A program made the position numbers and the translations under genes. Below, one piece after another: positions 47,042 to 63,343 of a stretch of 64,000 nucleotides of DNA (within the stretch, counting starts at the first letter, position 1; every line of letters begins with the position of its first letter). This DNA is from a virus (lineage: Duplodnaviria; Heunggongvirae; Uroviricota; Caudoviricetes): the IMG/VR virus record IMGVR_UViG_3300044613_002694, positions 30,376-94,375 of that record, one strand, 5' to 3'. A model generated the notes under the pieces. That model was not told where the DNA came from. It ran no database searches and saw nothing but the letters and a program-made list of their open reading frames with translations.

Positions 47042-47401
47042 ATGAGAGCAAGTGAATTTTTAAATGAAGATAATTTTGGAGTAGGAAAAAAACGCCCTGC
47101 ACGACCTGGATCTCGCGAAGACCAAGTTGGTCCACGTGGTCACAAACCAGAAACGCAATATAGTGTGGATGAAGAATTCGAAATTGATGAAGCTGGAAAG
47201 GCTCCTAAAAAGCTGTGTCTTTCTAAAAAAACTGATGGTGAATTAGGTGCAAGCCAATTATCATCATGTCAAGCACAGGGCTTACGTAAAAGAAATACAA
47301 AACGAAAATTTAGAATTGGTAAGAAAGTTCAATCAATTGATGGTAAATATGTGCGTTCGGCTGACTACGGAGGCCCTTTGCCCAAATGGAAAGGTAACTA
47401 A
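47042..47401 (+). CDS. basic small protein with MRASEF N-terminus (candidate packaged internal protein)
   Basis: Lys/Arg-rich; N-terminal motif shared with 55387 and 62917. Confidence 0.45.
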   Translation: MRASEFLNEDNFGVGKKRPARPGSREDQVGPRGHKPETQYSVDEEFEIDEAGKAPKKLCLSKKTDGELGASQLSSCQAQGLRKRNTKRKFRIGKKVQSIDGKYVRSADYGGPLPKWKGN

Positions 47402-48024
47402 TGCGATTTCGTGAATTTTCAAAATTAACAGAATTTGATGCGGGTAGCGCGATATCATCTGCAGGTAATATTATTAGTATGTTATCTAATCCACTCGGTG
47501 CATTAGATAATATTACTGGTACTACTTCTACCGATTCGGCTGGTGCTGGATCATCGACTGCTGATATAGCAACTATTCAAGACCCAGATTTTAACAGAAA
47601 ATTAGAAAAGGTTGCAAATAAGTTAGGTGTTAGAGCTAATGATTTGCTTGCTATTATGAAGCAAGAATCAGGTGTTGATCCATCAAGAGTTAATTCAACA
47701 TCTAACGCAACTGGCCTTATTCAATTCATGCCAGATACTGCTAGAAGACTTGGAACTACTACCGATGCATTAGCTAAAATGTCAGCTGTTGAACAACTAG
47801 ATTATGTTTACTTATATTACAAAAGTGTTAAACTTAAACCTGGGTCCGATGCCGGTGATATGTATGTGGCAACATTTTATCCAGCCGCTGCAGGACAACC
47901 TGATAATTATGTAATCAGTTCACGCGGAAACAAAGTTTATAACCAAAATGCAGGATTAGATAGAAATAAAGATGGAACAATCACTGTGGGAGATGTAAAA
48001 AAATCTGTATCAAGGTTTGTATAG
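47401..48024 (+). CDS. lytic transglycosylase (SLT-domain) protein
   Basis: ESGVDPSRVNSTSNATGLIQFMPDTARRLG resembles the SLT catalytic region (E...GLMQ.MP.TA). Confidence 0.5.
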   Translation: MRFREFSKLTEFDAGSAISSAGNIISMLSNPLGALDNITGTTSTDSAGAGSSTADIATIQDPDFNRKLEKVANKLGVRANDLLAIMKQESGVDPSRVNSTSNATGLIQFMPDTARRLGTTTDALAKMSAVEQLDYVYLYYKSVKLKPGSDAGDMYVATFYPAAAGQPDNYVISSRGNKVYNQNAGLDRNKDGTITVGDVKKSVSRFV

Positions 48025-48036
48025 TTAAATAACTTT

Positions 48037-48585
48037 ATGAATTTAATAGGTAATTTAATTATATCCCCGCCATCAGTAAAAGGCAATTTCTGGTATAAAA
48101 CAGTCGCAATGATTGTTGAACATCATAATCAAGGAAGTATTGGTATAGTTCTTAATAAACGAAGTAACTATACTATAAATGAATTAGGTGATCAACTTGA
48201 TTTAGATTTTGATATACCAGGATATGTCTATATAGGTGGTCCAGTCAATCCGAATAGTATTAGTTTAATTCATTCTAATGAATGGAGTTGCGATAATACA
48301 CTTCGGCTTAATGAAAACTTCTCATTAAGCTCATCAAAAGAAATCATGCGACGATTTTCTAATAATGACTTACCAAAAAAGTGGAGGTTATTTTTTGGAA
48401 TTTGTGGATGGCCACCTGGTAAACTACATAAAGAAATTAATGGCATTGAACCAGAAGATAAGAACACTAGTTGGTGTTTTACCAATAGCGACACAGATTT
48501 AGTGTTTAATCATGACACCAAAGTACAATGGAATAAAGCATTAGAAAAAGCTGCAGAAGAATTTTCACAAAGCATATTATCATAA
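48037..48585 (+). CDS. YqgE/AlgH-family (UPF0301) protein
   Basis: PSVKGNFWYKTVAMIVEHHNQGSIGIVLNKRSN...IGGPVNPNSISLIHS pattern. Confidence 0.5.
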   Translation: MNLIGNLIISPPSVKGNFWYKTVAMIVEHHNQGSIGIVLNKRSNYTINELGDQLDLDFDIPGYVYIGGPVNPNSISLIHSNEWSCDNTLRLNENFSLSSSKEIMRRFSNNDLPKKWRLFFGICGWPPGKLHKEINGIEPEDKNTSWCFTNSDTDLVFNHDTKVQWNKALEKAAEEFSQSILS

Positions 48586-48594
48586 GGATATATA

Positions 48595-49005
48595 ATGAAA
48601 AATTGGTTATGGAAAATATCTGGATTCATATTACTAGGTATTGGGTATCTCGGTATTATAACCCCAGGATTGCCATTCAGTCCATTTATTGTCGGTTCTG
48701 CTATATGTTTTAGCAAAAGTAGTCCAGCTATGCATAAATGGTTATATAATCACAAATTTTTTGGTCCGTTTTTAAGTAATTGGGTCAATAATAAAGTGTT
48801 TCCAACAAAAATGAAATACATGATGTTAGCTGTCATGTCTAGTTCATTAGTTATTTTATGGTTTACTACACACAATTCTACCACAATCGCATATTCTGGT
48901 GGTTTTATGATATTAGTCTCAATATGGGCTTGGAGATTTCCTGGAAGTCTTAATGAATATTATGAAAGAGAATCATCTGGTAAGAAAATAGGCTGGTTCA
49001 AATAA
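48595..49005 (+). CDS. YbaN-like (DUF454) inner membrane protein
   Basis: GLPFSPFIVGSAICFSKSSPAMHKWLYNHKFFGPFLSNW signature and TM helices. Confidence 0.55.
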   Translation: MKNWLWKISGFILLGIGYLGIITPGLPFSPFIVGSAICFSKSSPAMHKWLYNHKFFGPFLSNWVNNKVFPTKMKYMMLAVMSSSLVILWFTTHNSTTIAYSGGFMILVSIWAWRFPGSLNEYYERESSGKKIGWFK

Positions 49006-49239
49006 TGTAAAAAGATAAATATTAGAATTACAAAAATAAGGTAGTCCTAATGAGAAATAATATTTTACCACCCGTAAAACGAGGCGATACTTGGACATTT
49101 ACGTTCTCGTGGAAAAATCAAAAACACACCAATTGACTTGACTGATTGCACTGTATTAATAGAAGCAATTAAAGAACAACAACTGCATATCGATAAATTA
49201 GATAAAGATATTGAACAATTGAAATTAAAAGGATAAATT

Positions 49240-49599
49240 ATGACAATTACATATACATGGGAAGTAACCAGTTTAAAAACTACTACAATTGGATCTACTG
49301 CAAATGTAGTAGTACAAGCCTATTGGAAAAAAATTGGCACTGATGAAAATGGTAATGAAGGCATCTTTAATGGTGCTACTCCATTTACCGCAGATTCTAC
49401 TGATAACTCAGGTCCTTTTATTCCATTTTCAGGATTAACTGAAGAAAATGTACTAGATTGGATTAAATCCACCGTCGTTGGACATTACGAAGAACATGTT
49501 AATGAACAAATTTTAAAGCAAATTATCGATAAGATTAATCCAGTTATAGATACAGCTATGCCATGGGTAACTCCAGAAATTTCTGATCATTTTGTGTAA
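49240..49599 (+). CDS. hypothetical protein
   Basis: Track ORF. Confidence 0.4.
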   Translation: MTITYTWEVTSLKTTTIGSTANVVVQAYWKKIGTDENGNEGIFNGATPFTADSTDNSGPFIPFSGLTEENVLDWIKSTVVGHYEEHVNEQILKQIIDKINPVIDTAMPWVTPEISDHFV

Positions 49600-49634
49600 C
49601 TCCATAAATAAAAATTTAAAACAAAGGATTAAAA

Positions 49635-49811
49635 ATGGATAAAACACTAGTAACAGTAACCCTTGATGTAAACCAAGTAAATTTAATATTTGCAGCATTA
49701 ACCGATCAGCCATATAAAAATGTTGCAAAATTAATTGCTGAATTGGATGAACAACTAAAAACACAGTTGCAACAACACCCATCTGGGCCATTAACCGATA
49801 AATTAGTATAA
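49635..49811 (+). CDS. hypothetical small protein (58 aa)
   Basis: Manual translation MDKTLVTVTLDVNQVNLIFAALTDQPYKNVAKLIAELDEQLKTQLQQHPSGPLTDKLV. Confidence 0.35.
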   Translation: MDKTLVTVTLDVNQVNLIFAALTDQPYKNVAKLIAELDEQLKTQLQQHPSGPLTDKLV

Positions 49812-49827
49812 AAACGGAGTATTATAA

Positions 49828-50643
49828 ATGAAAAAATTATTTGCATTAATCTTATTAATGTCATCAGGAATGGTGCATGCTTGGGAACAAGTTGCCCCAT
49901 ATCCAATTGAAAAATGTCAAGTACAATCACCGTATGGCTTTCCACAAACTTCTAAACAAGGTGTAGCAATATGTCGTGCTGGTTATGTTACATTAAACGA
50001 TACTACTGCAAAATTACCAGTTTGGGTTTCTTATACATTATATCCTGAATATGCGTTAGGATGTGTTCCACGTTCTAATGGCTTTGCCCCCGATCAAAGC
50101 TTACCAAAAGGTAGTAGGGCAGAGCTAATCGATTTTAAAGGCAGCGGCTATGATATTGGTCACGTAGTACCCAATGCAGATCAATCAAGGTTCGATCAAA
50201 CAGAAAAAGAAAGTTTCTTATTAACTAATATGGTGGCTCAATTACCAGGAACTAATAGAGGAATAATTAAATTGACCGAAACTAATATTCGTGGATGGGT
50301 AACACAGAGAAATCATCCATATGTAATTTATTCTGGTCCATTATATGGACCAGGTGATAAAACTATTGGTTTAAACCAAATAGTCGTTCCTCATGCATTT
50401 TATAAAATAGTAATTGACACAACAACTAATGAAGTTGCTGGATTTCTAATACCACATGTCGGAAATCAAGGAAATGACTTGACAAAAGTTAGAGCGCCAA
50501 TTGATCAAATCCAACAATTATCAGGAGTCCAATTTGCATACCCAGCGAATGCGGTTGAATTACCATTAAATTATTTATGGCCTGTTGATTATAAAGCATT
50601 AACCGAAGCGAAAAGAGCTGCATGCAAAGGCAACGCTAACTAA
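49828..50643 (+). CDS. secreted DNA/RNA non-specific endonuclease
   Basis: Signal peptide MKKLFALILLMSSGMVHA; GYDIGHVVPNADQ resembles the DRGH-type active site of NUC-family nucleases. Confidence 0.5.
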   Translation: MKKLFALILLMSSGMVHAWEQVAPYPIEKCQVQSPYGFPQTSKQGVAICRAGYVTLNDTTAKLPVWVSYTLYPEYALGCVPRSNGFAPDQSLPKGSRAELIDFKGSGYDIGHVVPNADQSRFDQTEKESFLLTNMVAQLPGTNRGIIKLTETNIRGWVTQRNHPYVIYSGPLYGPGDKTIGLNQIVVPHAFYKIVIDTTTNEVAGFLIPHVGNQGNDLTKVRAPIDQIQQLSGVQFAYPANAVELPLNYLWPVDYKALTEAKRAACKGNAN

Positions 50644-51611
50644 CCAGGTTTATATTTACAATTATCAAAATGCCAGCGTTTTGCGTTCGATGCATTGCTG
50701 GCATTACCACAATACGGACAAATCAATATTTCCTGTGGTGTTAGTTTTTTGCCCTTTCTTGACAAACTCATTTTCAATTTAGATTCTTCGGTATGTGTTC
50801 TACCGGCCATGGCCCCTACTTTTCCATACATTGGGTTATTTTCACCAGTGTTAGCTTCACTCAGTTTTTCCTTGAGCTCTTTTGCTCGTTCTACCCCGTA
50901 TATTTCATCGAAGGTCTTTCCTTTACGCAATGCAATCGTTTCCGGAGAATGTTTCTTACCCGTAAAAGCACCAGGTTTTCCATATCTATGATTTTTATCA
51001 CCTAACATTTTTATACGTTTTTTCTCAGATATTTCTTTAGCCTTTTCTTCACCGAATATTTCATTATAACTTCTCCCTAACCTAGATGTTTTGTGAATAA
51101 TCTTCATCGGTTTTAATGATTCTTTATAAATCCATGTCTTTTTTAATTTATTGATTTTTTCTAATGCTTTTTCTTCCCCATATAATTCAATATATGTTTT
51201 TCCCTTATTATTTGATAGTTGACCTTTATTTCGTATACTAATCATTTGTTTTTGCTTATCGGTCCATAATCTTCCTAATGTACCATCCCCACCGAGGGTC
51301 ATATTGTATCCAGAATGGTAACTATCATATAAATTGATAAAATATGTCTCCATTGCATTTTTTAAATAATCCCCTTCTAACGATTGATATATTATTTCAA
51401 AGGTAAATTTATCGATGCCATACTTTTTAATAGCATAGTATAAATGCGAATTTAGTTTTCTTGAGTTTCTAGTATGTTCTACGATCCTTCTTTCAAAGTT
51501 ATTTGTAAAACCTATATAAATTTTCTCATTAATTGTATTTGTAATTTTATAAATGGAATAAATATCCATGTTGATACTCCTTTTCAGTATTAAAGTAGAT
51601 GGGAACGCCAA
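50640..51611 (-). CDS. GIY-YIG homing endonuclease with repeated NUMOD-like modules
   Basis: IYSIYKITN...KIYIGFTNNFERRIVEH GIY-YIG core; repeated (E)IYGxE(R/K)AKE modules. Confidence 0.65.
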   Translation of the reverse strand: MAFPSTLILKRSINMDIYSIYKITNTINEKIYIGFTNNFERRIVEHTRNSRKLNSHLYYAIKKYGIDKFTFEIIYQSLEGDYLKNAMETYFINLYDSYHSGYNMTLGGDGTLGRLWTDKQKQMISIRNKGQLSNNKGKTYIELYGEEKALEKINKLKKTWIYKESLKPMKIIHKTSRLGRSYNEIFGEEKAKEISEKKRIKMLGDKNHRYGKPGAFTGKKHSPETIALRKGKTFDEIYGVERAKELKEKLSEANTGENNPMYGKVGAMAGRTHTEESKLKMSLSRKGKKLTPQEILICPYCGNASNASNAKRWHFDNCKYKPG

Positions 51612-51713
51612 TTCCGCGATCTACACCATTATTTATAAATATTACTATGAAAATATTATACTACATTTATTACGTATTGTCAAAATTTGGATGTGGATTA
51701 GAAGGAATCCTGT

Positions 51714-51935
51714 ATGAAGATTAGTGAATTAATAGAGACATCAAACTATCTAGCACAGTTAAAAAGTGATGCGAAAAAACACTATCCAGAAACAGATACT
51801 GAGGATGAATCATTATTACAGTTTTTAGCTAGAAGTGTACTTCATGCAAAAGATGATGATGCTAAACAAAATAATGATATAGCAATTCTAAAATCTAAAA
51901 TAAATAATATTGAAAGAATAATTAACAACAAATAG
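51714..51935 (+). CDS. hypothetical protein
   Basis: Track ORF. Confidence 0.4.
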   Translation: MKISELIETSNYLAQLKSDAKKHYPETDTEDESLLQFLARSVLHAKDDDAKQNNDIAILKSKINNIERIINNK

Positions 51936-51944
51936 GAAAATACA

Positions 51945-52229
51945 ATGGCATTACAAATTAATATTAATACTGAATTCGGTACTGAAGAATCACCAGTATA
52001 TGCTCAATATTGGAATATTGGCGCAGTACAAGAGGATTTCAAAGGAAAGGGCACTGAAATCACTATCTATGGATATGCATCCAAAGAAGCAAGAGATAAT
52101 GAAAAACAACCACTATCTGCCGGAAAATTTCAAATAACTGGTGAAGAATATGTTGCTGGTGCAGATCGTGCAACATTATATGAAATCATCAAGCAACGCC
52201 CAGAATTCACTGGTGCAGAAGACTGCTAA
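51945..52229 (+). CDS. hypothetical protein
   Basis: Track ORF. Confidence 0.4.
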   Translation: MALQININTEFGTEESPVYAQYWNIGAVQEDFKGKGTEITIYGYASKEARDNEKQPLSAGKFQITGEEYVAGADRATLYEIIKQRPEFTGAEDC

Positions 52230-52241
52230 CCAGTCATACTC

Positions 52242-52266
52242 GATATCCCTAATTGTTAGGGATATC
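52242..52266. terminator. bidirectional hairpin between convergent genes
   Basis: GATATCCCTAaattgtTAGGGATATC perfect 10-bp stem; no strong T-run. Confidence 0.4.
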
Positions 52267-52331
52267 ACCTCAATGGTTTTATTAACTGTTCAAAAGAAAC
52301 ATATTATAGTGTTTAAGAAGTACGTAAACAT

Positions 52332-53519
52332 TTACAAAATTGATTTTAATGCATCGATTAAATCTTCAATCATTCCATCATCATGAAACGGAGTTGGTGC
52401 AAATCGCAATCGTTCAGTGCCAACATCTACTGTTGGAGAATTAATTGCTTGTACGTAAATACTATAATCATTTAATAATCTATCACTAATTTCTCTAGCT
52501 CTTTTAGCATCACCAATCAAAACAGGTACGATATGTGTAACTGAATCCATCACTGGTATTCCAGCTTCCTTCATCATTTTTTTTAATTTACTAGCACGTT
52601 CTTGGTGTTTTTCTCTTAATTCATTATGAGCTTTTGAATATTTAACTGCAGCTAATGCGCCAGCGACAATAACTGGGCTCAATGACGTACTAAAGATGAA
52701 TCCATCCGCGATGCTTCGAATAGCATCAATTACTATAGAATCCCCTGCGATATAACCACCTTGTACACCAAATGCTTTGCCAAGCGTACCATTAACAATA
52801 TCAACTCGATCTTGCAAATCCATTTCTTCTAACTCACCAGCACCAGTAAATCCTCTAACTCCTACTGCATGAACTTCATCACAGTATGTAATAGCATTAT
52901 ATTTGTCAGCTAAATCACAAATTTCTTTAATAGGACTAATATCACCTTCCATACTGTATATGCTTTCAAATACAATACAGGGAATATTTTCATTTTGAAC
53001 CGATTTCTTCAAACAATTTTCCAACTCTACTAAATCATTATGCTTGAATATTTGTTTAGATGCACGACTATGAACAATACCCATTATTAGACTATTATGG
53101 TTTTTGCTATCACTTATAAATTCAATATTTGGGATAATTTTAGCCAATGCTATTAAACTTGACGTATTCGCTACATAAGCCGAAGTAAATAATAATGCAC
53201 TCTCTTTTTTATGCAATGATGCCAATTCATGTTCTAATGCAACATGATAATGGGTAGTACCTGATATATTTCTCGTACCACCGGATCCAGCACCTGTCAT
53301 ATCTAATGCTGTTCGCATTGCATCTAGTACTACTTTATGCTGTCCAAGTGATAGATAATCATTACTACACCAATTGACAATATTTTTAATGGCATATGGC
53401 CCATACCAGATTGCATTTGGAAATTTACCTTGTTCTCGTAGTATGTCATTGAAAACTCTATACTTTCCAGTTTCTTTTAAATCATTAATAAGTTTATTGA
53501 ATGGTTCTTTGTTAATCAT
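52332..53519 (-). CDS. hemA: 5-aminolevulinate synthase (alpha-oxoamine synthase family, PLP-dependent)
   Basis: YRVFNDI...NWCSNDYL...[11 protein letters not shown]...[14 protein letters not shown]...CDEVHAVG...GTLGKAFG (PLP lysine)...[26 protein letters not shown] match the ALAS signature closely. Confidence 0.7.
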
Positions 53520-53556
53520 ACCGATATTTAACTAAATATACAAAAGGAAAAAAATT

Positions 53557-53769: not shown

Positions 53770-53770
53770 G

Positions 53771-55372
53771 ATGACATATATTCACCCAAACGATAATAAT
53801 TTAAAAAATCTGCATAAAGCTATGCAATATAATGAGTCTGGTGAACCAGTTGTTCGCACACATGTTGATGGAATATCATTACAAGGCGATGTTCTGGTTG
53901 ATAAGGTTAGAATTCAAATCGATACATTAGGGAATGTATGGGATGAAAATCATTCTGCACCAGTATCAATCGGTACTAATGGGCAAGTAACATTAAAAAC
54001 GAGTTCTGCAGTTATAGGAAAAGTTCAGCAAGATGGTGATTGGACTGTTAAACAAGGTACTACCCCATGGGCAATTAGTGATAATGGTGGTTCTATTACA
54101 GTGGATGGCAGTGTTTCAATTAGCAGTTTACCAGAAGTTGAAATAAAAAATGATAGTGGAAATCCTATCCCTATTTCATTTTCAACTGGTGCCCTAGATG
54201 CATTCGGTAGACAAAGAATTTCAGAACCTTTTACTTTAGGTGATTATAAGCACTTATATGGTATCGACCCCGCTTTTATTGATTATGCTGGAAATGGTGG
54301 TGCCATTGAATTTGTAAAAAATAAAGCATGTTGTACATTAACCACTACTTCTAATCCATCTAGTTTTATCATCCATCAAACAAAATTTTATCATCATTAT
54401 ATGCCTGGTAAATCTCAAGTAATTTTTAGTAGTATAAATTTTGGAGCAGCTACACCGAACGTAGTTAAACGAACTGGATACTTTGATGACAACGATGGAA
54501 TTTATTTCGAACAAGCAGGCGATGGGACTTTATCATGGGTAATAAGAAGTTTTGTTTCTGGCGCTCCCATTGAAGTCAGGAAAACTCAATCACAATGGAA
54601 TTTAGATACTGTATCATGGTTGAACATACTTAATACACAATTAGTAGCGATTGATTTCCAGTGGCTGGGCGTTGGTAGAGTTAGGGTTGGATTTGCACAT
54701 GATGGTGGTGTAGTTTATGTTCATGAATTTTTACATAGCAATAATTTACCAACTGTTTACATGAGTAATCCAAATCTTCCCGTTAGATGCGAAATAAGAA
54801 ATATTGGTACAACTACGGGTGGATCTATGGATCAAATATGTTCAACAGTATTCAGTGAAGGTGGCTATGTTGAAGCGGGACAGGATTGGGCTGCTACTAC
54901 ACCTACATTAAAAGTGATAAATGCTGGAATTACTGCGCCAGTTATGGCAATTAGATTAAAAAATACATTTCATACATATTCAAATAGAATGATTGTTCGC
55001 ATGGGTAATTTGAATATATTCAGTGATGGTGTTAATATTAAATGGAGACTGATAAAATTACCAGCACAAGCATTTCTAACAGGTAATTCATGGGTAGATG
55101 TGCATAATGATTCAGGTATTCAATATAATTCTACTGCTACCGCATGGACAGATGGGCAAGAAATGGATAGTGGATTTGTTGGTGCATCTACCCAAGGTAG
55201 TCAAAAAGCAGGAGGCGCACCGGCTAGTAACATCCCATCATCTGCAAAAAAGAATTATATTGTGCAAAACTTTGACAGTACGGATTCCGAGATATTTCTA
55301 GTAGTTGCAACTAATCTTGGCTCACAATCAACTAATGTTGGTGTTAGTATGCAATGGCGTGAAATCTATTAA
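53771..55372 (+). CDS. putative virion structural protein (533 aa)
   Basis: Start of a long co-oriented block with fibre-like proteins. Confidence 0.45.
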   Translation: MTYIHPNDNNLKNLHKAMQYNESGEPVVRTHVDGISLQGDVLVDKVRIQIDTLGNVWDENHSAPVSIGTNGQVTLKTSSAVIGKVQQDGDWTVKQGTTPWAISDNGGSITVDGSVSISSLPEVEIKNDSGNPIPISFSTGALDAFGRQRISEPFTLGDYKHLYGIDPAFIDYAGNGGAIEFVKNKACCTLTTTSNPSSFIIHQTKFYHHYMPGKSQVIFSSINFGAATPNVVKRTGYFDDNDGIYFEQAGDGTLSWVIRSFVSGAPIEVRKTQSQWNLDTVSWLNILNTQLVAIDFQWLGVGRVRVGFAHDGGVVYVHEFLHSNNLPTVYMSNPNLPVRCEIRNIGTTTGGSMDQICSTVFSEGGYVEAGQDWAATTPTLKVINAGITAPVMAIRLKNTFHTYSNRMIVRMGNLNIFSDGVNIKWRLIKLPAQAFLTGNSWVDVHNDSGIQYNSTATAWTDGQEMDSGFVGASTQGSQKAGGAPASNIPSSAKKNYIVQNFDSTDSEIFLVVATNLGSQSTNVGVSMQWREIY

Positions 55373-55386
55373 GGATAAATACATCT

Positions 55387-55593
55387 ATGAGAGCTGCAGA
55401 ATTTATGAGAGCGTTGGCTGATGTAATTGATACATTAGATGGCGACAAAGAAAATAAAAAAGACCCATCTGAATTAGAAGATAATCCAGTTTTTGTTCCA
55501 CCATTACAACAGAAGATCGAATTGATGAAAAAATCATCAGGTATTCAATCTGTCTTTGATCAGGCAGATGATGATGGTCCTTTTGAGGATTAA
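55387..55593 (+). CDS. small acidic protein with MRAAEF N-terminus
   Basis: N-terminus shared with 47042 and 62917; GGATAAATACAT motif before the ATG. Confidence 0.4.
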   Translation: MRAAEFMRALADVIDTLDGDKENKKDPSELEDNPVFVPPLQQKIELMKKSSGIQSVFDQADDDGPFED

Positions 55594-55595
55594 TC

Positions 55596-55946: not shown

Positions 55947-55955
55947 GGAATTTAA

Positions 55956-57227
55956 ATGAGTAACATTATTAGAATAAAACGTTCAGAAACATCAGGCAAT
56001 CCATCAACATTAGGTAATGGTGAATTAGCATATTCTGGATTAACAGATAATGGTAGTAATGGTGGTGATCGATTATACATTGGTATGGGTTCAGAAACTA
56101 GTGGAAATGCCGCAACCCATGTTGTTATCGGTGGTAAATTTTTTACCGATAGATTAGATCATACTGCTGGCACATTAACTGCATCGTCTGCTATTGTGGT
56201 AGATTCTAATAAAAAAATCGATGATTTATTAGTTGATAACATTGAATTAAATGGCAACACTATTAGCACTACTGATACTAATGGAAATTTATTATTATCA
56301 CCTAATGGTACTGGAAAAGTTTCTATTGCTGGTGCTTATACATTACCTAGAGTAGATGGTACTGCCAATTATGTTTTAACCACTAATGGAGCTGGTGTTG
56401 TATCTTGGGCCGCAATACCAGTTAGTGGCTCAATAACCATTGGCTCAACATCTATATCATTAGGCGCAACCTCCACTTCATTAGCTGGATTAACCGAACT
56501 AACAATTGATAATTTAAACTTCAATGGCAATATTATTTCATCCACAAATACAAATGGCGATATTTCATTAGACCCAAATGGGTTAGGGAATGTTGATGTC
56601 AATGGTGCGAAAATAACCAATGTTGGTACACCAGAAGTTGGTAGTGATGCTGCTAATAAAGATTATGTTGATAATGCAGTTACTGGGTTAACATGGAAAG
56701 ATGCTGCTAATTTATTAGCAGATTCTAATGTAGAATTAACTGGAACAACTGGGACTTTGGTTATTGATGGTCATGGTGCATTAACTCAAGCACACGGCGA
56801 TGGTTATAGAATTTTATTAAAAAATCAATCAACTGCATCAGAAAATGGTGTATATCTATACAGCGATGATGGTTCTAATTATACATTATCTAGATCAGCT
56901 GACGCAGATACTTATGCTGAATTAAAAGGTGCTTCAATATTCATATTAGAAGGTACCAATTATGGTAAATCTGGTTGGGTACAAGGTAATCATTATTTGA
57001 CCAATTTTTCAGGTCAGCAATGGGTACAATTCAATGGTGGTGGTGCGTATTCAGGCGGTGATGGGTTGACATTATCCGGTTCAACATTTATTGTTAATGT
57101 TGCAACTGATGGTGGTATTGAAATTGCAGCTGATAACCTACAATTAAAATCAACCATTGCTGGTAGTGGGCTATTATATTCATCAGGTGTGTTATCGGTT
57201 GGTGATATAGACGGCGGTACTTACTAA
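55956..57227 (+). CDS. tail fibre-like protein (Gly/Thr/Asn-rich, 423 aa)
   Basis: Low-complexity beta-rich composition; repeated LNGNTIS/FNGNIIS units. Confidence 0.5.
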   Translation: MSNIIRIKRSETSGNPSTLGNGELAYSGLTDNGSNGGDRLYIGMGSETSGNAATHVVIGGKFFTDRLDHTAGTLTASSAIVVDSNKKIDDLLVDNIELNGNTISTTDTNGNLLLSPNGTGKVSIAGAYTLPRVDGTANYVLTTNGAGVVSWAAIPVSGSITIGSTSISLGATSTSLAGLTELTIDNLNFNGNIISSTNTNGDISLDPNGLGNVDVNGAKITNVGTPEVGSDAANKDYVDNAVTGLTWKDAANLLADSNVELTGTTGTLVIDGHGALTQAHGDGYRILLKNQSTASENGVYLYSDDGSNYTLSRSADADTYAELKGASIFILEGTNYGKSGWVQGNHYLTNFSGQQWVQFNGGGAYSGGDGLTLSGSTFIVNVATDGGIEIAADNLQLKSTIAGSGLLYSSGVLSVGDIDGGTY

Positions 57228-57297
57228 ATAAAATATTGGGAAGAATTTCTATTCTACCCTTGCAATTATTGCAGAACTTTCCTCTATAGGATTTAAA

Positions 57298-57906
57298 ATG
57301 GCAAACAAAGTATTACTGAAAAAATCATCAGTAATCGGCAAAATCCCACTCGCTACTGATTTAGATTATGGCGAGATCGCGTTGAATTATGCCGATGAAA
57401 AATTGTATTTTAAAAACACATCTGATCAAGTAACCTTCATTTCGAATTATACATTACCAACTGCTAGTACAACAGTATTAGGTGGTGTAAAAGTTGATGG
57501 AACATCAATTACTATTGATAATGGTGTCATTAGTTCAGCAGGTGGAGGAGGTTCATCTGCGTATAATAGAACTTCATATACAGCACTTCCTGGACAAACA
57601 GTATTTAATGTAATATATACAGTTAATTTTATAAACGTATATATCAACGGAACATTATTAGATCCCGCATCCTATACCGCAACTAATGGGGCTTCAATAA
57701 CACTAAATACTGGTTGTAATGAAGAAGATTTAGTAGATATTTTTGCTTTTTCAAATGTTTCATTACAGTCTATGCCAACCGCTACTACATCAACCTTGGG
57801 CGGGGTTAAAGTAGATGGCACAACTGTTACAATTGATAACGGTGTGATAAGTAGTAATTCTCATATAGGAAAGAGTCTTATTATGACAATTATATTTGGT
57901 GGATGA
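57298..57906 (+). CDS. tail-fibre-like protein with two copies of the LPTASTTVLGGVKVDGTSITIDNGVISS motif
   Basis: Motif read directly (two copies). Confidence 0.5.
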   Translation: MANKVLLKKSSVIGKIPLATDLDYGEIALNYADEKLYFKNTSDQVTFISNYTLPTASTTVLGGVKVDGTSITIDNGVISSAGGGGSSAYNRTSYTALPGQTVFNVIYTVNFINVYINGTLLDPASYTATNGASITLNTGCNEEDLVDIFAFSNVSLQSMPTATTSTLGGVKVDGTTVTIDNGVISSNSHIGKSLIMTIIFGG

Positions 57907-57907
57907 T

Positions 57908-58324
57908 ATGGCTGTTCAAAATTTACTTAAAATGACCGCAATGAGATTAAAAACATCATATCTAACTCCTTCTACCACTGGTAACATTGTATTACTTTCA
58001 AATGGTTCGGATTGTGCAATTAAAATTGAATCAATACTTGCATCTAATATAAGTGAAGGCACCGCAATCTGTAGTGTCTATTTGGGTATTGGAGTTGGAA
58101 TTATAAAAAACCCATTCCCAGGAACTATGGTTGAAATGATGAAAGATATACCAATATATAGCTCATCATCGATGGTCTTTAGCGATAGAGCTACTAGCTT
58201 TTACCTACCAGAAAATAATTGTATAGTGGTATCATCATCAATTGCAAATTCAATAAAGTATACCATAACGTATGAAATAGCCGCTACGAGTATTAAATAT
58301 ATTAATATGGCAGAAAGCATCTGA
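57908..58324 (+). CDS. hypothetical structural protein (paralog of 58352-58747)
   Basis: C-terminal SSSIANSIKYTITYE vs SSIASTLVYVVSYE. Confidence 0.45.
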   Translation: MAVQNLLKMTAMRLKTSYLTPSTTGNIVLLSNGSDCAIKIESILASNISEGTAICSVYLGIGVGIIKNPFPGTMVEMMKDIPIYSSSSMVFSDRATSFYLPENNCIVVSSSIANSIKYTITYEIAATSIKYINMAESI

Positions 58325-58351
58325 GTATTAAAAATAAATTATGGAATAATA

Positions 58352-58747
58352 ATGGCAAATCCAAATATAGCAAATTTATCAACAATTAATGGGGTAACAA
58401 CATATTATAACCCATCAGTAACATCAGCGGTTGTATTAGTTGCAAATCCTGCAAATTCAGGACATGTTTATAAAATCAATGTTATAAACATATCTAATAT
58501 AAATACATCATCAAATATACCAACTTCAATAGCACTTTATACAAATGGTGATGTGTCACAAGGTTCTTCACCATCAGGTGGTGTTGCATATTCATTACTT
58601 TCTACAGTAGTGGTGCCATATAATGCTTCATTGGTTGCAATAGATAAGGCATCTTCATTCTACTTACAAGAAGGCATGTCCATCATTGTTACATCATCAA
58701 TTGCGAGTACATTGGTATATGTTGTTAGTTACGAGGATATGTTTTAA
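58352..58747 (+). CDS. hypothetical structural protein (paralog of 57908-58324)
   Basis: As above. Confidence 0.45.
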   Translation: MANPNIANLSTINGVTTYYNPSVTSAVVLVANPANSGHVYKINVINISNINTSSNIPTSIALYTNGDVSQGSSPSGGVAYSLLSTVVVPYNASLVAIDKASSFYLQEGMSIIVTSSIASTLVYVVSYEDMF

Positions 58748-59655
58748 TGGCTAGATTTGGTGGTAGTTTAATAGGGAAAACTATCACTGTAACTACTGAT
58801 GTAGCAAACGGAATTTGGTCGGTAAAAAATGCATATCAAAACACAAGCTGGCCGTGGTTTGAATTATATAAATTAGTTTTTCCTGTTACATTCGGTACAT
58901 CAAAAAATACTCAATTTGGATATATTCAAACTTCTAATTCATCCTATATACCACCAAATTCGGTCCCGCCAACAAAAGCCGAATTACAAACATATTATGA
59001 TAGTATTGGAACTGGGACAGGTACACTCTCATCAATACTAGCAGATAGTACGAATACATATTTTGAAGTACCATATAATGGGGTTCAAGTATGGACTGTA
59101 CCAAAATCAGGGTTATACACATTTGAAGTAGCCGGTGCCCCCAGCGGTAATGCTTCTGGGGGTAGCACCTTATATGGATATCCAGCAAAAATAACAGCAA
59201 CTTTTAGTTTATTAAAAAATGAGATAATATGGATGTTAATAGGCCATCGTGGAACACAGTCTGGTTATGGGACATCTAACAACGGGGGGTGTGGTGGATT
59301 TACATTAGTCGCCAAAGGTTCTGATATAACTAATATAGCAAATTTAACCGCATGTTTAGTGTGTGCAGGTGCAGGATTATCGTATAGTGATGGCACTGTT
59401 GTAAATGCTAGTTATACTGGACAATCATTGACTGCATATAATGCCGTTAAATCTTCATCCGGCTCATTAAATGGCTCTAGACATTCATATTATTATTCAT
59501 TTTTTTATTATATCAGTGCTGGTGGATTTCCTCTCGGGGGTACCATTAATGGCCCGAAGTATTCTGATTGTTATGTAGATACTACTGCAACAAATGTAAC
59601 CAGAGAATTGATGTCAACCTTGCAGGCTGGATACGTTAAAGTAAGTTATAGTTAA
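58747..59655 (+). CDS. hypothetical structural protein (paralog of 61696-62571)
   Basis: FEVPYNGVQVWTVPKSGLYTFEVAGAPSGNASGG vs FKVPVQGVQAFCIPETGNYKIVARGAPGGDSSYAGG. Confidence 0.45.
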   Translation: MARFGGSLIGKTITVTTDVANGIWSVKNAYQNTSWPWFELYKLVFPVTFGTSKNTQFGYIQTSNSSYIPPNSVPPTKAELQTYYDSIGTGTGTLSSILADSTNTYFEVPYNGVQVWTVPKSGLYTFEVAGAPSGNASGGSTLYGYPAKITATFSLLKNEIIWMLIGHRGTQSGYGTSNNGGCGGFTLVAKGSDITNIANLTACLVCAGAGLSYSDGTVVNASYTGQSLTAYNAVKSSSGSLNGSRHSYYYSFFYYISAGGFPLGGTINGPKYSDCYVDTTATNVTRELMSTLQAGYVKVSYS

Positions 59656-59666
59656 AGGGAAATATC

Positions 59667-61043
59667 ATGGCATCTGTCAATAAGTATTTTGGTAATATTA
59701 TTCGTTCATCTAAAATATCAATAAGTAAATTCAAAACATCAGGGATATTTAATATCAAAGATAACTATATCCAACGATTATCAGATCTATGGCCTAATGA
59801 AGGTGTATGGTGTGCATTTAAATCATCAATAACCACTAGCAGTAATACCTACATGTCAGGTGCAAATACATTGCACGTTTGTTCTGATGGTAGTATTTAT
59901 GCTACCTATACAACTGTTGTAACTGAAAGGGAATCATATATGGTTAAACACTCACCAAGTGGGACCGTATTATGGCAGAAAAAATTCCCTAGCCTTGAAA
60001 AAACAATTGATTCATGCATTGACTCATCCGATAATTGCTATGTTATGTCTGATTTTATTCAATCAGGGTATTATAACTATGTATTTATTTCTAAATATTC
60101 ATCAAATGGTACAATGCTATGGCGGAGATATATTTCTAGTTCATCATCAGCTGTTAATTCTGTTAATTGTTTTATTGGAACTGATGGTTACCTATATGCA
60201 TCTGTTAAAAAATATAGTAATACTACCGGGGTGTGTTACATTATCAATACTGATGGTGGTTTGATTTCTAAAAATAATATACCGTATGGCGGGGTAGTAT
60301 TTCAAAACAACTCTGGGACTTTTTATGTTTCATCATATTGGAACTCAACGCAATCTGTTTATAAATTTGGAAATTCATTATCCGGTCAATACACTTCAGC
60401 AATAGCTATATCAGGCCCATCTGGTGGTTATATTGGGTTGAATAATAAACCAACAGTTGATTCATCTGGGATAATATATCTACATGGTTCATATTGTACA
60501 ACTACCAGTACTACGAAACCATTAGGGGTTACTGTTAGACTCAATTCATCAGTTTCTTGGCTTTCTACAACAACATTTTCTGATCCAGGATCTACTTACA
60601 TTGGAAACGGATGTAGTACAAATAATTCTGTTATTTCTGGAAATTACATTTATACAATCAGCAGTGAATATACTCCATATAGTTATGTGCATTGCTATAA
60701 TATTTCTAATTTTTCAGTGGTATGGGTTATGCGCTTGAGTGGTAATAGTACAAATTTTCCACCGGATCTGTTGGAAAAAGACAATAAAGGCAACATATAT
60801 CTGTATCATGGATATTATGCAATGAAACTTCTTCCTGATCTCTATTTCGTTGGTTCTTATACACTTTACGATAAAACTATATCAATTATTAAAAAAACCG
60901 ATCTATCATATGCAGGACCAAGTATTACTCTGGCGGCTGCTTCATACACAATAACTACCAATACTGATGCGGATCTTTATTTTTATAACGCATCTGCATC
61001 TAGCACTAATAGTAATTTAACATTTTATAATATAATTATATAA
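59667..61043 (+). CDS. Ser/Thr/Tyr/Asn-rich putative receptor-binding/fibre protein (458 aa)
   Basis: Composition; position in the structural block. Confidence 0.4.
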   Translation: MASVNKYFGNIIRSSKISISKFKTSGIFNIKDNYIQRLSDLWPNEGVWCAFKSSITTSSNTYMSGANTLHVCSDGSIYATYTTVVTERESYMVKHSPSGTVLWQKKFPSLEKTIDSCIDSSDNCYVMSDFIQSGYYNYVFISKYSSNGTMLWRRYISSSSSAVNSVNCFIGTDGYLYASVKKYSNTTGVCYIINTDGGLISKNNIPYGGVVFQNNSGTFYVSSYWNSTQSVYKFGNSLSGQYTSAIAISGPSGGYIGLNNKPTVDSSGIIYLHGSYCTTTSTTKPLGVTVRLNSSVSWLSTTTFSDPGSTYIGNGCSTNNSVISGNYIYTISSEYTPYSYVHCYNISNFSVVWVMRLSGNSTNFPPDLLEKDNKGNIYLYHGYYAMKLLPDLYFVGSYTLYDKTISIIKKTDLSYAGPSITLAAASYTITTNTDADLYFYNASASSTNSNLTFYNIII

Positions 61044-61063
61044 AATATTAGGATAAATACATT

Positions 61064-61687
61064 ATGTCAAATAATAGAAATCTTGCTTTTTTTTCATCAT
61101 ATCTAACAAATTCAGGATATATTAATCCTTCTAGTGAGGTGATTCCAGCAGCCACTGCATCAACAATCGGCGGAGTAAAAATAGATGAAACTACTATTTC
61201 TATTAATGCTGGGGTTATTAGTTTAAATACTGCAAATTCTAATACATTCACTAATACACAAATATTTGCTGGTTCTGCAACTGCACTTGCTACAAAATTA
61301 GTTAACGCTAAAGAACGTGTTACTATATCAGCTACAGCAGCAACAGGAACTATAAATTTTGATGTCTCAACGCAATCTATTTTATATTATACATCGAATG
61401 CATCGGCAAACTTTACAATTAATATTAGATCAAATGCAAGTAATACACTTGATTCTGTCATGAATGTTGGTGAATCTGTAACAGTTGTGTTTATGAATAC
61501 AAATGGCGGTACAGCATATTATCCATCGGGAGTTAAAATAGATGCCGCTGCAGTAACTCCTAAATGGCAGGGTGGTTCAGCACCAACATCAGGTAATGCT
61601 AGCGCAATTGATGCTTACACTTATACTATTATTAAAACTGCTTCATTAACATATACCGTTCTTGCATCACAGTCTAAATTTGCATAG
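61064..61687 (+). CDS. tail-fibre-like protein with AATASTIGGVKIDETTISINAGVISL motif
   Basis: Shared motif. Confidence 0.45.
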   Translation: MSNNRNLAFFSSYLTNSGYINPSSEVIPAATASTIGGVKIDETTISINAGVISLNTANSNTFTNTQIFAGSATALATKLVNAKERVTISATAATGTINFDVSTQSILYYTSNASANFTINIRSNASNTLDSVMNVGESVTVVFMNTNGGTAYYPSGVKIDAAAVTPKWQGGSAPTSGNASAIDAYTYTIIKTASLTYTVLASQSKFA

Positions 61688-61695
61688 GAAATATA

Positions 61696-62571
61696 ATGCC
61701 ATTATTATCAACATTTTCAAGTGCAAGTGTGCGGGATTTCGGCAGAGGAAGAGGCGGCGGTGCTGGTCTATTTGATTTTACATCGGGAACTTTTACCAGT
61801 CCTTTATTAGCTGGCACATATGGATCTAATACCGTTAAAACATGGATGTATGGTCCAACAAATGCTCAATTACTGAGTATGTATACTGGAAATTTGTATA
61901 CTCTTTTAAATAACAACGTTTATTTTAAAGTTCCAGTTCAAGGTGTTCAAGCATTTTGTATACCAGAAACCGGAAATTATAAGATCGTTGCAAGAGGAGC
62001 ACCAGGTGGGGATAGTTCATATGCTGGTGGTCTTGGTGCATACATAGAGGCAACATTTGCATTTGAACAATCAGATATTTTATGGATGTCAATTGGCCAA
62101 GCAGGTGCAGCTGGACATACAACCTACAGTGATTATTGTAGTGCAGGAGGTGGTGGTGCAACGTTTGTAGCAAAGGGTACAAAAAATCAATGGCTATTTA
62201 ATCCTACCAATGTTGGAACAAATTTAATATGTGCAGCAGGAGGGCTTGGTGCTAAAGAAAATAGATTTGCAACTACAACCCCATCTAATAGTAGTACCTA
62301 TACAACGACAGCTGGGTCAGGTTGGACATCTTGGATAACACAAAGTATAAATGGTGCTCTTGGAGGGTTTAATGGGCTGTATTCAGCAGGTGGATATGGA
62401 TTAGGTAAGGGAACTGATGATCAATTTGGTGGTGCAGGTGGCAATGGTGGCACATATCAGACAACGCCGGAAAATTATATACATTCTAGTGCAACTAATA
62501 TAACTGTATCTGGGACTACTAGCATTAGTTCTAGAAGTAATCCTGGATATGTTACCTTGATTAAACTGTAA
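61696..62571 (+). CDS. hypothetical structural protein (paralog of 58747-59655)
   Basis: See 58747. Confidence 0.45.
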   Translation: MPLLSTFSSASVRDFGRGRGGGAGLFDFTSGTFTSPLLAGTYGSNTVKTWMYGPTNAQLLSMYTGNLYTLLNNNVYFKVPVQGVQAFCIPETGNYKIVARGAPGGDSSYAGGLGAYIEATFAFEQSDILWMSIGQAGAAGHTTYSDYCSAGGGGATFVAKGTKNQWLFNPTNVGTNLICAAGGLGAKENRFATTTPSNSSTYTTTAGSGWTSWITQSINGALGGFNGLYSAGGYGLGKGTDDQFGGAGGNGGTYQTTPENYIHSSATNITVSGTTSISSRSNPGYVTLIKL

Positions 62572-62580
62572 GGTAAAAAT

Positions 62581-62898
62581 ATGAATTATATCAAAGTATC
62601 AAAATCAAATGAAATAATAAAATATCCATATACATGGAATGATTTGTATAATGAAAATCCATTTTCTTTATATGATGATAGATATACATTATCAAAATGG
62701 TATGAAAAAACTGAAGAAGGAATATCGTCTGAAAACAAAATACTAGAAGTAACTATACAGGATTGTTCATCAATCGATCAAAGTAAATTCATAGTAGCAT
62801 ATGATAATATACCAATTTTTGAAAATGACCATTGGATTTTGAAATTTACAATAGAAGAAATGGATGCAGTTGTTTCAGTTAAACCGGCTGCAATTTAG
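62581..62898 (+). CDS. hypothetical protein
   Basis: Track ORF. Confidence 0.4.
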   Translation: MNYIKVSKSNEIIKYPYTWNDLYNENPFSLYDDRYTLSKWYEKTEEGISSENKILEVTIQDCSSIDQSKFIVAYDNIPIFENDHWILKFTIEEMDAVVSVKPAAI

Positions 62899-62916
62899 AA
62901 AAATAATAAATACATC

Positions 62917-63343
62917 CATGAGAGCTAAAGAATTTTTAATAGAGAACGCCAGCGGCAGCCCGGTGACCATAAACATACCAATTTCTATAACAATCCCATC
63001 GGATGGAGGTGGAATTGTTACGTCAACTAATGATCCTGTTGAAAAAGGTGAATTACCAGAAGTTCCAATTCATGTATTTCCACTACAACAAGAATTTGAA
63101 TTGAAGAAACATCAGGCCGGTGCTTCCAACCCTGTTATCAATCAAATATTGCATGACAAAGGTGCGTTATCTGACAAAACACAGTCAGAAACCGTGCAAC
63201 TTCCACCTACCAGAGATACATTATCTGAAAAAGATGTTTTTACTGATAAAAAAGTAATGGTTGAAAAAGAAAATCAATCATACGATTTTCTCGAAAATTT
63301 TGACTGGCTAGAACAAGAATTCAGAAATTCTAAAAAGCATTAA
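62917..63343 (+). CDS. small protein with MRAKEF N-terminus
   Basis: Internal start of track ORF 62864; N-terminus shared with 47042 and 55387. Confidence 0.4.

Follow-up and report, generated by a model that had tools for sequence, protein, structure and literature searches.

A shared N-terminal leader resembling T4 capsid-targeting sequences on unrelated proteins of an uncultured jumbo phage

Four genes in a 64-kb stretch of DNA from an uncultured jumbo phage (the window, whose contig is 367 kb long) open with a common leader of 9–11 residues, MRxxEF…, which is probably a T4-type capsid-targeting leader. The T4 likeness is well supported by sequence comparison: the leader occurs on six or more unrelated protein families, usually ends as expected for a gp21-type protease, keeps the positions that are critical in T4, and belongs to a clade whose head modules carry it on the protein in the core position.

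Tagged genes in the window

A six-frame scan of the window for M[RK]xxEF returned four matches, all four of them at ORF starts. The tagged genes, a possible further member and the context genes are as follows.

47042..47401, + strand: small basic protein, tagged; 119 aa, pI 9.8; start MRASEFLNED
47401..48024, + strand: lytic transglycosylase, tagged; 207 aa; Pfam SLT 2.3e-9; N-terminus MRFREFSKLTEF
51714..51935, + strand: possible fifth member with the looser leader MKISELIE; 73 aa; a single ORF, weak
53771..55372, + strand: 533-aa virion structural protein, phrog_1645; shared with T4-like cyanomyophages
55387..55593, + strand: small acidic protein, tagged; 68 aa, pI 4.2; start MRAAEFMRAL; MRAAEFMRALAD…
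55956..57906, + strand: fibre-like genes 55956 (423 aa) and 57298 (202 aa), context genes
62918..63343, + strand: acidic protein, tagged, paralogue of ORF 55387; 141 aa, pI 5.0; start MRAKEFLIEN

The shared leader is real and far above chance. Dinucleotide-preserving shuffles (n = 200) contained M[RK]xxEF on average 0.58 times anywhere and 0.010 times at ORF starts, and even one such ORF start was seen in just 2 of the 200. The same tie to gene starts was found among relatives, which we collected using the 533-aa virion structural protein (53771..55372) as an anchor. Of 49 leader occurrences in 80 related loci, 47 are no more than 30 codons from a stop, and a general form of the leader pattern is present at 8.1% of gene starts, compared with 1.6% of Met residues inside genes (p = 7e-29).

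The initial annotation had listed ORFs 47042, 55387 and 62917 as three proteins starting with MRAxEFL/M. All three exist, although the last begins one base later, at 62918, and the neighbouring SLT gene 47401, noted there only as a neighbour, is tagged as well. The bodies had also been called otherwise unrelated. This holds for ORF 47042 but not for ORFs 55387 and 62918, which are paralogues (BLASTP E = 1e-4) with the common motif P-x-x-V-x-PLQQ-x-x-EL-x-K; ORF 47042 and the SLT enzyme are unrelated to each other and to this pair. Some gene callers start ORF 62918 at an upstream ATG (62864), and the MRAKEF start is used in most records and in all relatives.

ORFs 47042, 55387 and 62918 matched no PHROG or Pfam family, and a tblastn search with ORF 47042 against 50,697 phage records returned no matches. 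The AF2 model of ORF 47042 consists of a helical tag, a disordered linker and a small C-terminal domain, for which a search for a known fold gave no match. The start of SLT gene 47401 overlaps the stop of ORF 47042 (TAATG), and a low-complexity linker precedes its SLT domain. ORF 55387 always lies directly 3' of the 533-aa virion structural protein, with synteny in L009-11, L024, L055, L079, L081 and L085/86. The MKISELIE start of ORF 51714 fits the form MK[IV]xE[IL][IL]xE, which is common among relatives. As read from their residues, the tagged N-termini do not resemble Sec or Tat signal peptides, having one Arg followed by acidic or polar residues (MRASEFLNEDNFGVGKKR…) and no hydrophobic stretch such as the h-region of about 10-20 residues that comes after the twin-arginine or basic n-region of those peptides.

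Modularity of the leader and its predicted cleavage site

Across ~100 related loci, the leader takes the form M-R-[A/F/Y]-x-E-F and is found on at least six protein families that are unrelated. The bodies that follow it include SLT, PG_binding+SLT, M23, GH19, GDSL, HAD phosphatase, DUF6267 (a ligase-like protein, tagged in relatives) and small basic and acidic proteins, with cytidylyltransferases also among the tagged proteins of relatives. These families have different Pfam domains and no detectable mutual similarity. A variant, MR[FY]xEFK[LI]x(x)E, stands on the PG_binding+SLT, M23 and GDSL+SLT proteins of relatives. DUF6267 proteins are untagged in the cultured marine cyanophages S-RIM32 and P-HM1, where the protein begins at the conserved core, without the leader. 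At the level of sequence, the leader is a modular, detachable element: a short N-terminal stretch placed on unrelated mature parts, seen on four genes of the window and on 27 distinct N-termini. Sister lineages use a 10-mer (MKTFKEFILE, MKSFVEFITE) on the same families. The two forms are dialects of different lineages that largely exclude each other; counted per locus, 25 contain dialect D1 only, 47 D2 only and 6 both.

The motif [LIVM]-x-E, a candidate prohead-protease site, closes the leader in three of the four window genes (LNE9, LIE9 and LTE11). The predicted cuts fall after E9 of MRASEFLNE in ORF 47042, leaving a mature protein of 110 aa (pI 9.9), after E9 of MRAKEFLIE in ORF 62918, and after E11 of MRFREFSKLTE in the SLT enzyme. 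ORF 55387 and its orthologues were searched for [LIVM]-x-E downstream of the tag and lack it, and this protein may be packaged uncleaved. More broadly, 19 of 27 distinct tagged N-termini have [LIVM]-x-E by residue 14, versus 267 of 1025 controls (26%; p = 2.7e-6). In the basic family of ORF 47042 (32 cluster representatives), M1, R2, E5 and E9 never vary and all 32 have Phi-[LIM]-x-E9, while the next ~40 residues are variable. This motif, with which the leader usually ends, is the gp21 protease site of T4.

Correspondence with T4 leaders and the clade's head module

The T4 capsid targeting sequence (CTS) of IPI, IPII, IPIII and Alt was reportedly described by Mullaney and Black in 1996. The CTS of the internal proteins and Alt has been reviewed (PMC9026906, PMC3012670, PMC5694885), and mutagenesis has shown residues 4 and 7 to be needed for targeting and residues 8 and 10 for processing (PMC9026906). 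These critical positions are conserved in the window's leader with a one-residue offset ([A/F/Y]3, invariant F6, [LIV]7 and E9). The sister-dialect MKTFKEFILE matches them without an offset and is nearly identical to T4 MKTYQEFIAE, which is removed from IpII as residues -10 to -1. Both systems place a short N-terminal leader with a core E-F-[IL]-x-E on unrelated proteins, with hydrophobic or aromatic residues at both targeting positions, [IL] and E at the processing positions, a closing gp21 site, and hypervariable cargo families. They differ in that the window's leader is a 9-mer starting M-R-[A/F/Y] whereas the T4 leader is the 10-mer MKTYQEFIAE, and the mature window proteins are not homologous to T4 internal proteins (no PHROG/Pfam, fold or, for 47042, tblastn match). 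The cargo is also far broader and mainly enzymatic (wall hydrolase, ligase-like, phosphatase, cytidylyltransferase), and the hosts of the leader are uncultured jumbo (~367 kb) phages. The initial annotation's comparison of the tag with T4 is well supported by these comparative data. For the anti-restriction role that it named for the T4 proteins we found no evidence here; the recognisable cargo is mainly cell-wall hydrolases and nucleotide/RNA-end enzymes.

The T4 core and shell propeptides (gp22 MLKEQLIAE, gp21 MNEPQLLIE, gp24 MAKINELLRE, gp67 MEGLIE) are similar to the leader in length class (6-10 residues) and in their Phi-[LI]-x-E ending. However, the window's tagged genes are accessory and lie outside the head module, and the mature tagged proteins had no detectable homology to gp22, gp67 or gp68. 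The ejection proteins of phiKZ and SPN3US likewise belong to giant myophages that package many proteins, with a T4-related prohead protease that cuts after Glu. Their propeptides, which gp245/gp175 cut at A/S-x-E (PMC5694885), mostly exceed 100 residues and have no common short motif, in contrast to the sharply conserved 9-11 residues and [LIVM]-x-E of the window's leader. T7 gp16, a head-carried and ejected lytic transglycosylase with an SLT domain, offers a functional analogy for the tagged SLT enzyme, although it is a ~1300-aa podovirus structural core protein without a cleavable targeting leader and the window enzyme is a 207-aa myovirus protein. Wall hydrolases of myoviruses are normally tail or baseplate parts, which counts against regarding them as head cargo.

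The lineage groups with Atu_ph07/Phosso/Rak2-type jumbo relatives of T4, an assignment that for the window rests on its relatives; the DNA polymerase of one dialect-2 locus is 51% identical to that of Phosso and 46% to that of Atu_ph07. Judged from its gene content, this clade possesses T4-type head genes, with head modules of the gp20–gp23 type and a gp21-type protease and gp22-type scaffold in Phosso and 160 IMG/VR loci. In Phosso, the head-module gene after the portal encodes 80 aa with the start MRYNEFSKE, and the one after the gp21-type protease encodes 171 aa with the start MRASELFEF. Of 110 IMG/VR loci, at least 73 have M[KRNQ]xx[ED]-Phi-Phi, the skeleton of the window's tag, as the start of the small gene at the gp67 position, and capsid proteins of the clade keep L-x-E at the propeptide boundary. 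In one relative (L252), tagged genes lie 3-7 kb from the protease-scaffold-capsid module on the same contig. Neither the window nor any contig shown to belong to its genome yielded a gp21, gp22 or gp23 gene. The window does contain a gp23-like fragment that matches the clade's capsid N-arm in 117 loci, and in related jumbo phages the portal-protease-scaffold-capsid module is directly followed by homologues of the window's genes 55956 and 57298 (60% and 41% identity; L244, L248, L250, L255 and L316). In the wider jumbo clade, the broad leader pattern is not enriched beside the head module (1.1% versus 1.9%), which indicates that the expansion of the tag is lineage-specific.

The leader might instead dock proteins to a different part of the virion (baseplate, tail or neck) or to a chaperone, with the hydrolases acting as tail-tip enzymes. 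Many tagged proteins are indeed peptidoglycan hydrolases, and the tagged window genes sit amid fibre and structural genes. SLT gene 47401 has PHROG matches in the C-terminal region of phrog_196 'baseplate hub' (8.5e-39) and, weakly, in phrog_342 (3.4e-7; 'internal virion protein with endolysin domain'), and its SLT domain also resembles a large hub-region protein of S-RIM32. We nonetheless regard such docking as unlikely, since the leader is also found on ligase-like proteins, HAD phosphatases, cytidylyltransferases and small charged proteins, for which a tail role is not obvious, and since it has the length and the key positions of T4 head-core leaders, closes with the cleavage motif of the head protease and is borne by the gp67-position gene between portal and protease.

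The conserved [LIVM]-x-E cut site and the many potentially self-harmful hydrolases would also fit a signal for regulated proteolysis or activation outside capsids, such as a pro-peptide that silences lytic enzymes until a phage or host protease removes it in the cytoplasm. This is quite improbable: inhibition is unlikely from a 9-residue leader with a long disordered linker before the catalytic domain, the non-enzymatic small proteins and the core-position protein of the head module bear the leader too, and the T4 precedent ties exactly such a motif to core binding.

Codons, promoters and the proposed packaging route

Codon variation within the tag shows that the leader is selected as protein rather than as RNA. 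Arg2 is encoded by AGA, CGA or CGT and never replaced by Lys, and all four Ala codons occur at position 3, in the proportions seen across the genome. AGA, GAA and TTT are over-used inside the tag (AGA in 24 of 28, versus 38% genome-wide), which indicates some RNA-level selection at the start too. Three sites resemble T4 late promoters, whose consensus is TATAAATA.

47017..47023, + strand: ATAAATA, T4-late-promoter-like, 18 nt 5' of ORF 47042 and followed by the Shine-Dalgarno (SD) GAGGAAG; putative function
55375..55381, + strand: ATAAATA, 5 nt 5' of the ORF 55387 ATG; without SD
62906..62912, + strand: ATAAATA, 5 nt 5' of the ORF 62918 ATG

TAAATA lies within 45 nt upstream of 13 of 29 tagged genes versus 182 of 917 controls (p = 0.004), and in the acidic and several basic family members it ends 4-7 nt before the ATG, without SD; the ORF 55387 mRNA is possibly a near-leaderless late transcript. 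A search for gp55 did not find it. This proximity, together with the codon over-use, is what would be seen if the shared start served translation initiation at the RNA level, for example on late mRNAs that are leaderless or have no SD, with the peptide incidental. That explanation is very unlikely in view of the Arg2 codons, which are never the AAA of Lys, and the free choice of Ala3 codons. Moreover, the tag is found equally on SD-led or translationally coupled genes (47042, 47401), the untagged gene 61064 has the identical promoter and start arrangement GGATAAATACAT-ATG, and Phi7 and E9 are kept further downstream. Common ancestry within a small paralogous family, or chance, would suit the paralogy of ORFs 55387 and 62918 and is scarcely credible against dissimilar bodies in at least six families with distinct Pfam domains, the existence of untagged homologues and an expectation of 0.01 per window.

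If MRxxEF is a T4-type capsid-targeting leader, the tagged genes would be transcribed late from the T4-like ATAAATA promoters, and the leader (M-R-[A/F/Y]-x-E-F-[LIV]-x-E, 9–11 residues) would bind the assembling scaffolding core of the prohead by imitating the N-terminal residues of the small core protein and scaffold that the phage itself encodes. The gp21-type prohead protease would cleave after [LIVM]-x-E, at E9 (47042, 62918) or E11 (SLT), and the mature protein would be freed inside the head, then ejected with the DNA. A more speculative extension, which we advance tentatively, is that the leader marks out a sequence-readable 'injectome', in which the products of up to ~8% of the genes close to the structural region would be capsid-loaded and protease-released. 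The myovirus head, not the baseplate, would then deliver peptidoglycan hydrolases, the ligase-like, phosphatase and nucleotidyltransferase set would enter with the DNA, possibly for nucleic-acid repair or modification, and the two mutually exclusive dialects would reflect co-evolution with each phage's scaffold core.

Should the leader work like the T4 CTS, the packaged and ejected proteins of uncultured jumbo phages, which are the first phage factors to face host defences, could be predicted from sequence. The CTS principle would reach beyond the T-even phages to two large environmental groups, the freshwater relatives of T4-like cyanophages and the Rak2/Atu_ph07-type jumbo phages, with a cargo that is unexpectedly enzymatic. 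Such short tags might be engineered to load proteins into non-E. coli phages, and Sinorhizobium phage Phosso provides concrete cases in a cultured phage.

The leader in the window and in related phages

Four genes in the window open with the same short N-terminus, M-R-[A/F/Y]-x-E-F (the tag or leader).

47042-47401, tagged basic protein, 119 aa, MRASEFLNED
47401-48024, tagged SLT lytic transglycosylase, MRFREFSKLTEF, fourth M[RK]xxEF occurrence
55387-55593, tagged protein, 68 aa, MRAAEFMRAL
62918-63343, tagged protein, 141 aa, MRAKEFLIEN

A six-frame scan of the 64 kb found M[RK]xxEF four times, in all four cases opening an ORF. In 200 dinucleotide-preserving shuffles the pattern occurred 0.58 times on average and opened an ORF 0.010 times, which indicates that the shared MRxxEF starts are real and not due to chance. 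The initial annotation had described three MRAxEF ORFs with otherwise unrelated bodies. All three exist, with the third starting at 62918 rather than 62917, and the basic protein is indeed unrelated to the other two; these, however, are paralogous to each other (E=1e-4, PxxVxPLQQxxELxK common to both). The SLT enzyme likewise shows no kinship to this pair; its ATG shares bases with the stop codon of the preceding 119-aa gene. The basic protein returned no useful fold match from its AF2 model and zero tblastn matches against phages, and is found on many metagenomic contigs, the longest being Ga0451721_0000001 (JGI 3300043415) with 367,267 bp.

Among 50,697 phage records, megablast with 24 kb of the window turned up nothing closely related at the DNA level. 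The 533-aa structural protein encoded directly 5' of ORF 55387 is common to T4-like cyanomyophages (51% identity to the marine phage S-RIM32), and with it as query we collected 80 related IMG/VR loci (38-99% identity). These contain 49 instances of M[RK]xxEF, 47 of them at most 30 codons from the upstream stop. The tagged N-termini comprise 27 distinct sequences, all with M1, R2, E5 and F6 and with A, F, Y or L at position 3. Without their first 12 residues, the proteins group into six or more families that are unrelated to one another. Pfam assigned the bodies to SLT, PG_binding+SLT, GDSL+PG_binding+SLT, M23+PG_binding, GH19, HAD phosphatase and DUF6267, the last of which looks ligase-like on account of a KxDG motif, and later searches added cytidylyltransferase-like proteins and a tail-lysozyme-domain protein.

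The DUF6267 proteins of S-RIM32 and P-HM1, both cultured marine cyanomyophages, start right at a conserved HLEHxED core, whereas their environmental relatives carry 9-10 additional residues ahead of it, indicating that the tag is an add-on. The tag was not found in S-RIM32. Both cultured phages have the DUF6267 (KxDG) gene next to the cytidylyltransferase gene, and neither of the two carries a tag.

S-RIM32, L107 15652-17405, DUF6267 and cytidylyltransferase genes
P-HM1, L104 5980-9073, DUF6267 and cytidylyltransferase genes

In freshwater relatives both families have capsid-targeting-like leaders, which points to a possible recruitment of this conserved pair of enzymes as virion cargo.

Likeness to T4 leaders and a candidate cut site

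Reviews describe the T4 capsid-targeting sequence (CTS) as a stretch of 10-19 residues that attaches to the scaffolding core and is cleaved off behind a Glu by gp21 (PMC5694885, PMC3012670). In T4 IpII, the residues annotated as removed are -10 to -1, MKTYQEFIAE (GenBank X04567). In IPIII, residues 4 and 7 are the main targeting determinants, and residues 8 and 10 act in processing (PMC9026906). With a one-residue offset, the counterparts of these four positions in the new tag are [A/F/Y]3, F6, [LIV]7 and E9, and a gp21-type ending is present in three of the four window genes. The likeness to T4 internal-protein leaders proposed in the initial annotation is well supported. The leaders of T4 head proteins (gp22 MLKEQLIAE, gp21 MNEPQLLIE, gp24 MAKINELLRE, gp67 MEGLIE) are of equal length class and share the Phi-[LI]-x-E ending (Phi, hydrophobic). 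The tagged cargo is not homologous to T4 cargo.

A [LIVM]-x-E site ending by residue 14 is present in 19/27 tagged N-termini compared to 267/1025 controls (p=2.7e-6). The window sites are F-L-N-E9, F-L-I-E9 and K-L-T-E11; ORF 55387 has no such site after its tag. The basic-protein family, represented by 32 cluster members at 59-100% identity, has invariant M1, R2, E5 and E9; all 32 have Phi-[LIM]-x-E9, followed by about 40 highly variable residues. A T4 leader that cannot be processed is still able to target (PMC9026906), and we speculate that ORF 55387 could likewise still be targeted. A widespread 83-94-aa family starting M[RK]K[ST]TRS[IL]LQEL (L009 19233, L021 12860, L039 13145, L070 10724 and others) fits the leader pattern with L-Q-E at residues 9-11, yet the protein itself is conserved and might belong to the core instead of being cargo.

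Judged by sequence, the conserved leader of the window genes probably acts like the T4 CTS. Searches of the literature found no description of comparable tags outside the T-evens. The main alternative is a tail-docking leader, which the correspondence with the IPIII positions does not favor; wall hydrolases are usually tail parts in myoviruses, and this keeps the alternative alive. A repeated-DNA cassette is ruled out, since near the four tagged starts the DNA is conserved only in the codons and in an ATAAATA 5' of them. For Arg2 the codons are AGA (24), CGA (3) and CGT (1), and Lys never takes its place; all four Ala codons occur at position 3. AGA, GAA and TTT are over-represented in the tag, as is common at gene starts. 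The conservation of the tag does not stem from an artefact at the RNA or DNA level, and a Tat or Sec signal is ruled out by the sequences themselves.

A broader pattern, Phi-[LIVM]-x-E whose E falls at residue 9, 10 or 11, matches 111/1363 gene starts in the relatives (8.1%) versus 1.6% of internal Met (p=7e-29), and 1/248 starts in S-RIM32/P-HM1. It resolves into two dialects: a 10-mer class (MKTFKEFILE, MKSFVEFITE, MLKFNEFITE), almost identical to T4's own CTS, and a 9-mer class (MRAxEF[LI]xE, MKIREIINE, MRISEILSE). The same families, such as DUF6267 and the basic protein, carry either class. The 10-mer alone occurs in 25 loci, the 9-mer alone in 47 and both in 6. One dialect per locus is the outcome expected if the leaders of each phage co-evolve with a single recognition partner. 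The 10-mer loci are bona fide T4-like cyanophage relatives, as their gp41, UvsX and gp61 show 44-57% identity to S-RIM32.

Head genes of the wider clade

The DNA polymerase of the 9-mer locus L022 is nearest to those of jumbo T4 relatives, namely Sinorhizobium phage Phosso (PV764938; 51%), Atu_ph07 (46%) and GAP32/121Q/CBB (43%); the BCS1-like ATPase of the window is nearest to those of ~350-kb Rak2/121Q-type phages. Atu_ph07 has 16 T4 core proteins and 131 virion proteins by mass spectrometry (PMC6102473); names looked up in its virion-proteome supplement were not found, and its leaders vary too much for enrichment to be tested.

The Phosso head module encodes a gp20-type portal, an 80-aa protein (XYS97480, MRYNEFSKE…), a core protein, a gp21-type protease (45.5% identity to S-RIM32 gp21), a 171-aa protein (XYS97485, MRASELFEF…), a scaffold and a gp23-type capsid protein. 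The protease as query gave 160 IMG/VR loci, the largest contig being 524 kb. Of these loci, 110 have sufficient upstream sequence, and in at least 73 of the 110 the small gene in the place of T4 gp67 starts M[KRNQ]xx[ED]-Phi-Phi. L-x-E is kept at the propeptide boundary of the capsid proteins. Locus L252 (33% GC) has tagged genes (MKFKEIIDE…, MRIYEIFES…) at a distance of 3-7 kb from its protease, scaffold and capsid genes. Around head modules of the wider clade, the broad leader pattern shows no enrichment, indicating that the large expansion of the tag is lineage-specific.

45010-45366, minus strand, 118-aa gp23-like ORF, Pfam Gp23 at positions 5-48 only (N-arm), E=5.6e-13

In 117 loci this fragment has a match in the N-arm of jumbo-clade capsid proteins, with identities reaching 59%. 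Relatives keep it as a small stand-alone gene, and it could be a capsid-mimic, decoy or remnant. Contig walks, homology and overlap searches did not find the protease, scaffold and capsid genes of the window's own genome. The gp23-like fragment did not lead to the lineage's capsid gene, a word-based search returning two orthologues only; the S-RIM32 gp21 query did not find its protease, the 120 matches listed all being at least 83% identical to the query; the IMG/VR contig walk from L009 and L064 reached an exonuclease-nrdA-nrdB module and no head genes; and protease loci and window-lineage loci had no nucleotide overlap. Homologues of window genes 55956 and 57298 lie directly 3' of the capsid gene in L244, L248, L250, L255 and L316.

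Putative promoters and other features of the genome

ATAAATA lies 18 nt 5' of ORF 47042, which has a good Shine-Dalgarno sequence. For ORFs 55387 and 62918 the distance is only 5 nt, and for the fibre-like gene 61064 it is 4 nt. As the last gene is untagged, the promoter/start arrangement does not need the tag.

55375-55389, 61053-61066 and 62906-62920, GGATAAATACAT(C/T)(N)ATG, late-promoter-like ATAAATA 4-5 nt before the start, no Shine-Dalgarno

This spacing suggests that the three genes may be expressed from leaderless or near-leaderless late mRNAs, and it recurs before tagged genes of many relatives. TAAATA is found within 45 nt upstream of 13/29 tagged genes compared to 182/917 controls (p=0.004), as would fit late transcription of the T4 type.

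The window is AT-rich (34.5% GC) and phage-like, and encodes NAMPT, an NMNAT-Nudix fusion, AAA ATPases, TnpB, the SLT enzyme and virion structural proteins.

3864-4385, NADAR domain protein
22753-23775, NMNAT-Nudix fusion
30641-32104, NAMPT
52332-53519, minus strand, 5-aminolevulinate-synthase-like aminotransferase
23776-24534 and 50640-51611, minus strand, GIY-YIG/NUMOD3 homing endonucleases (also L001/L003/L006 ~10370-11134)
37831-39012, minus strand, TnpB/IS605 OrfB, Cas12f-like TNB domain
63364-64000, 5' part of a giant collagen-like (G-X-Y repeat) fibre gene continuing past the window end

The auxiliary metabolic set, with NAMPT, NMNAT-Nudix and NADAR, covers NAD salvage and ADP-ribose handling; further genes encode a BCS1-like AAA ATPase, an SPFH/Band-7 protein and a Bax1-I protein. 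TnpB is carried by the window strain and L005 and missing in other near-identical strains, thus marking a recently mobile element. The homing-endonuclease genes share an upstream element (ATAAATA and a GGAATTGG(A/C)GTTCC hairpin) and are presence/absence polymorphic among strains, some of which have a 254-aa NUMOD3 endonuclease inserted exactly between the tagged basic and tagged SLT genes. The collagen-like fibre gene encodes 2,872 aa in relative L090, and metagenomic contigs, including the 367-kb one, often break there. Finally, a ~310-315-aa acidic protein (MQI[KR]DLS.K.TS.KLNES…) had zero tblastn matches in 50,697 phage records and is always encoded 5' of an exonuclease-nrdA-nrdB-glutaredoxin block; it might be a ssDNA-binding-type replication protein.

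L064 13438-14358, L097 11149-12096 and 80 loci L109-L188 (including contigs of 364-383 kb), ~310-aa acidic protein
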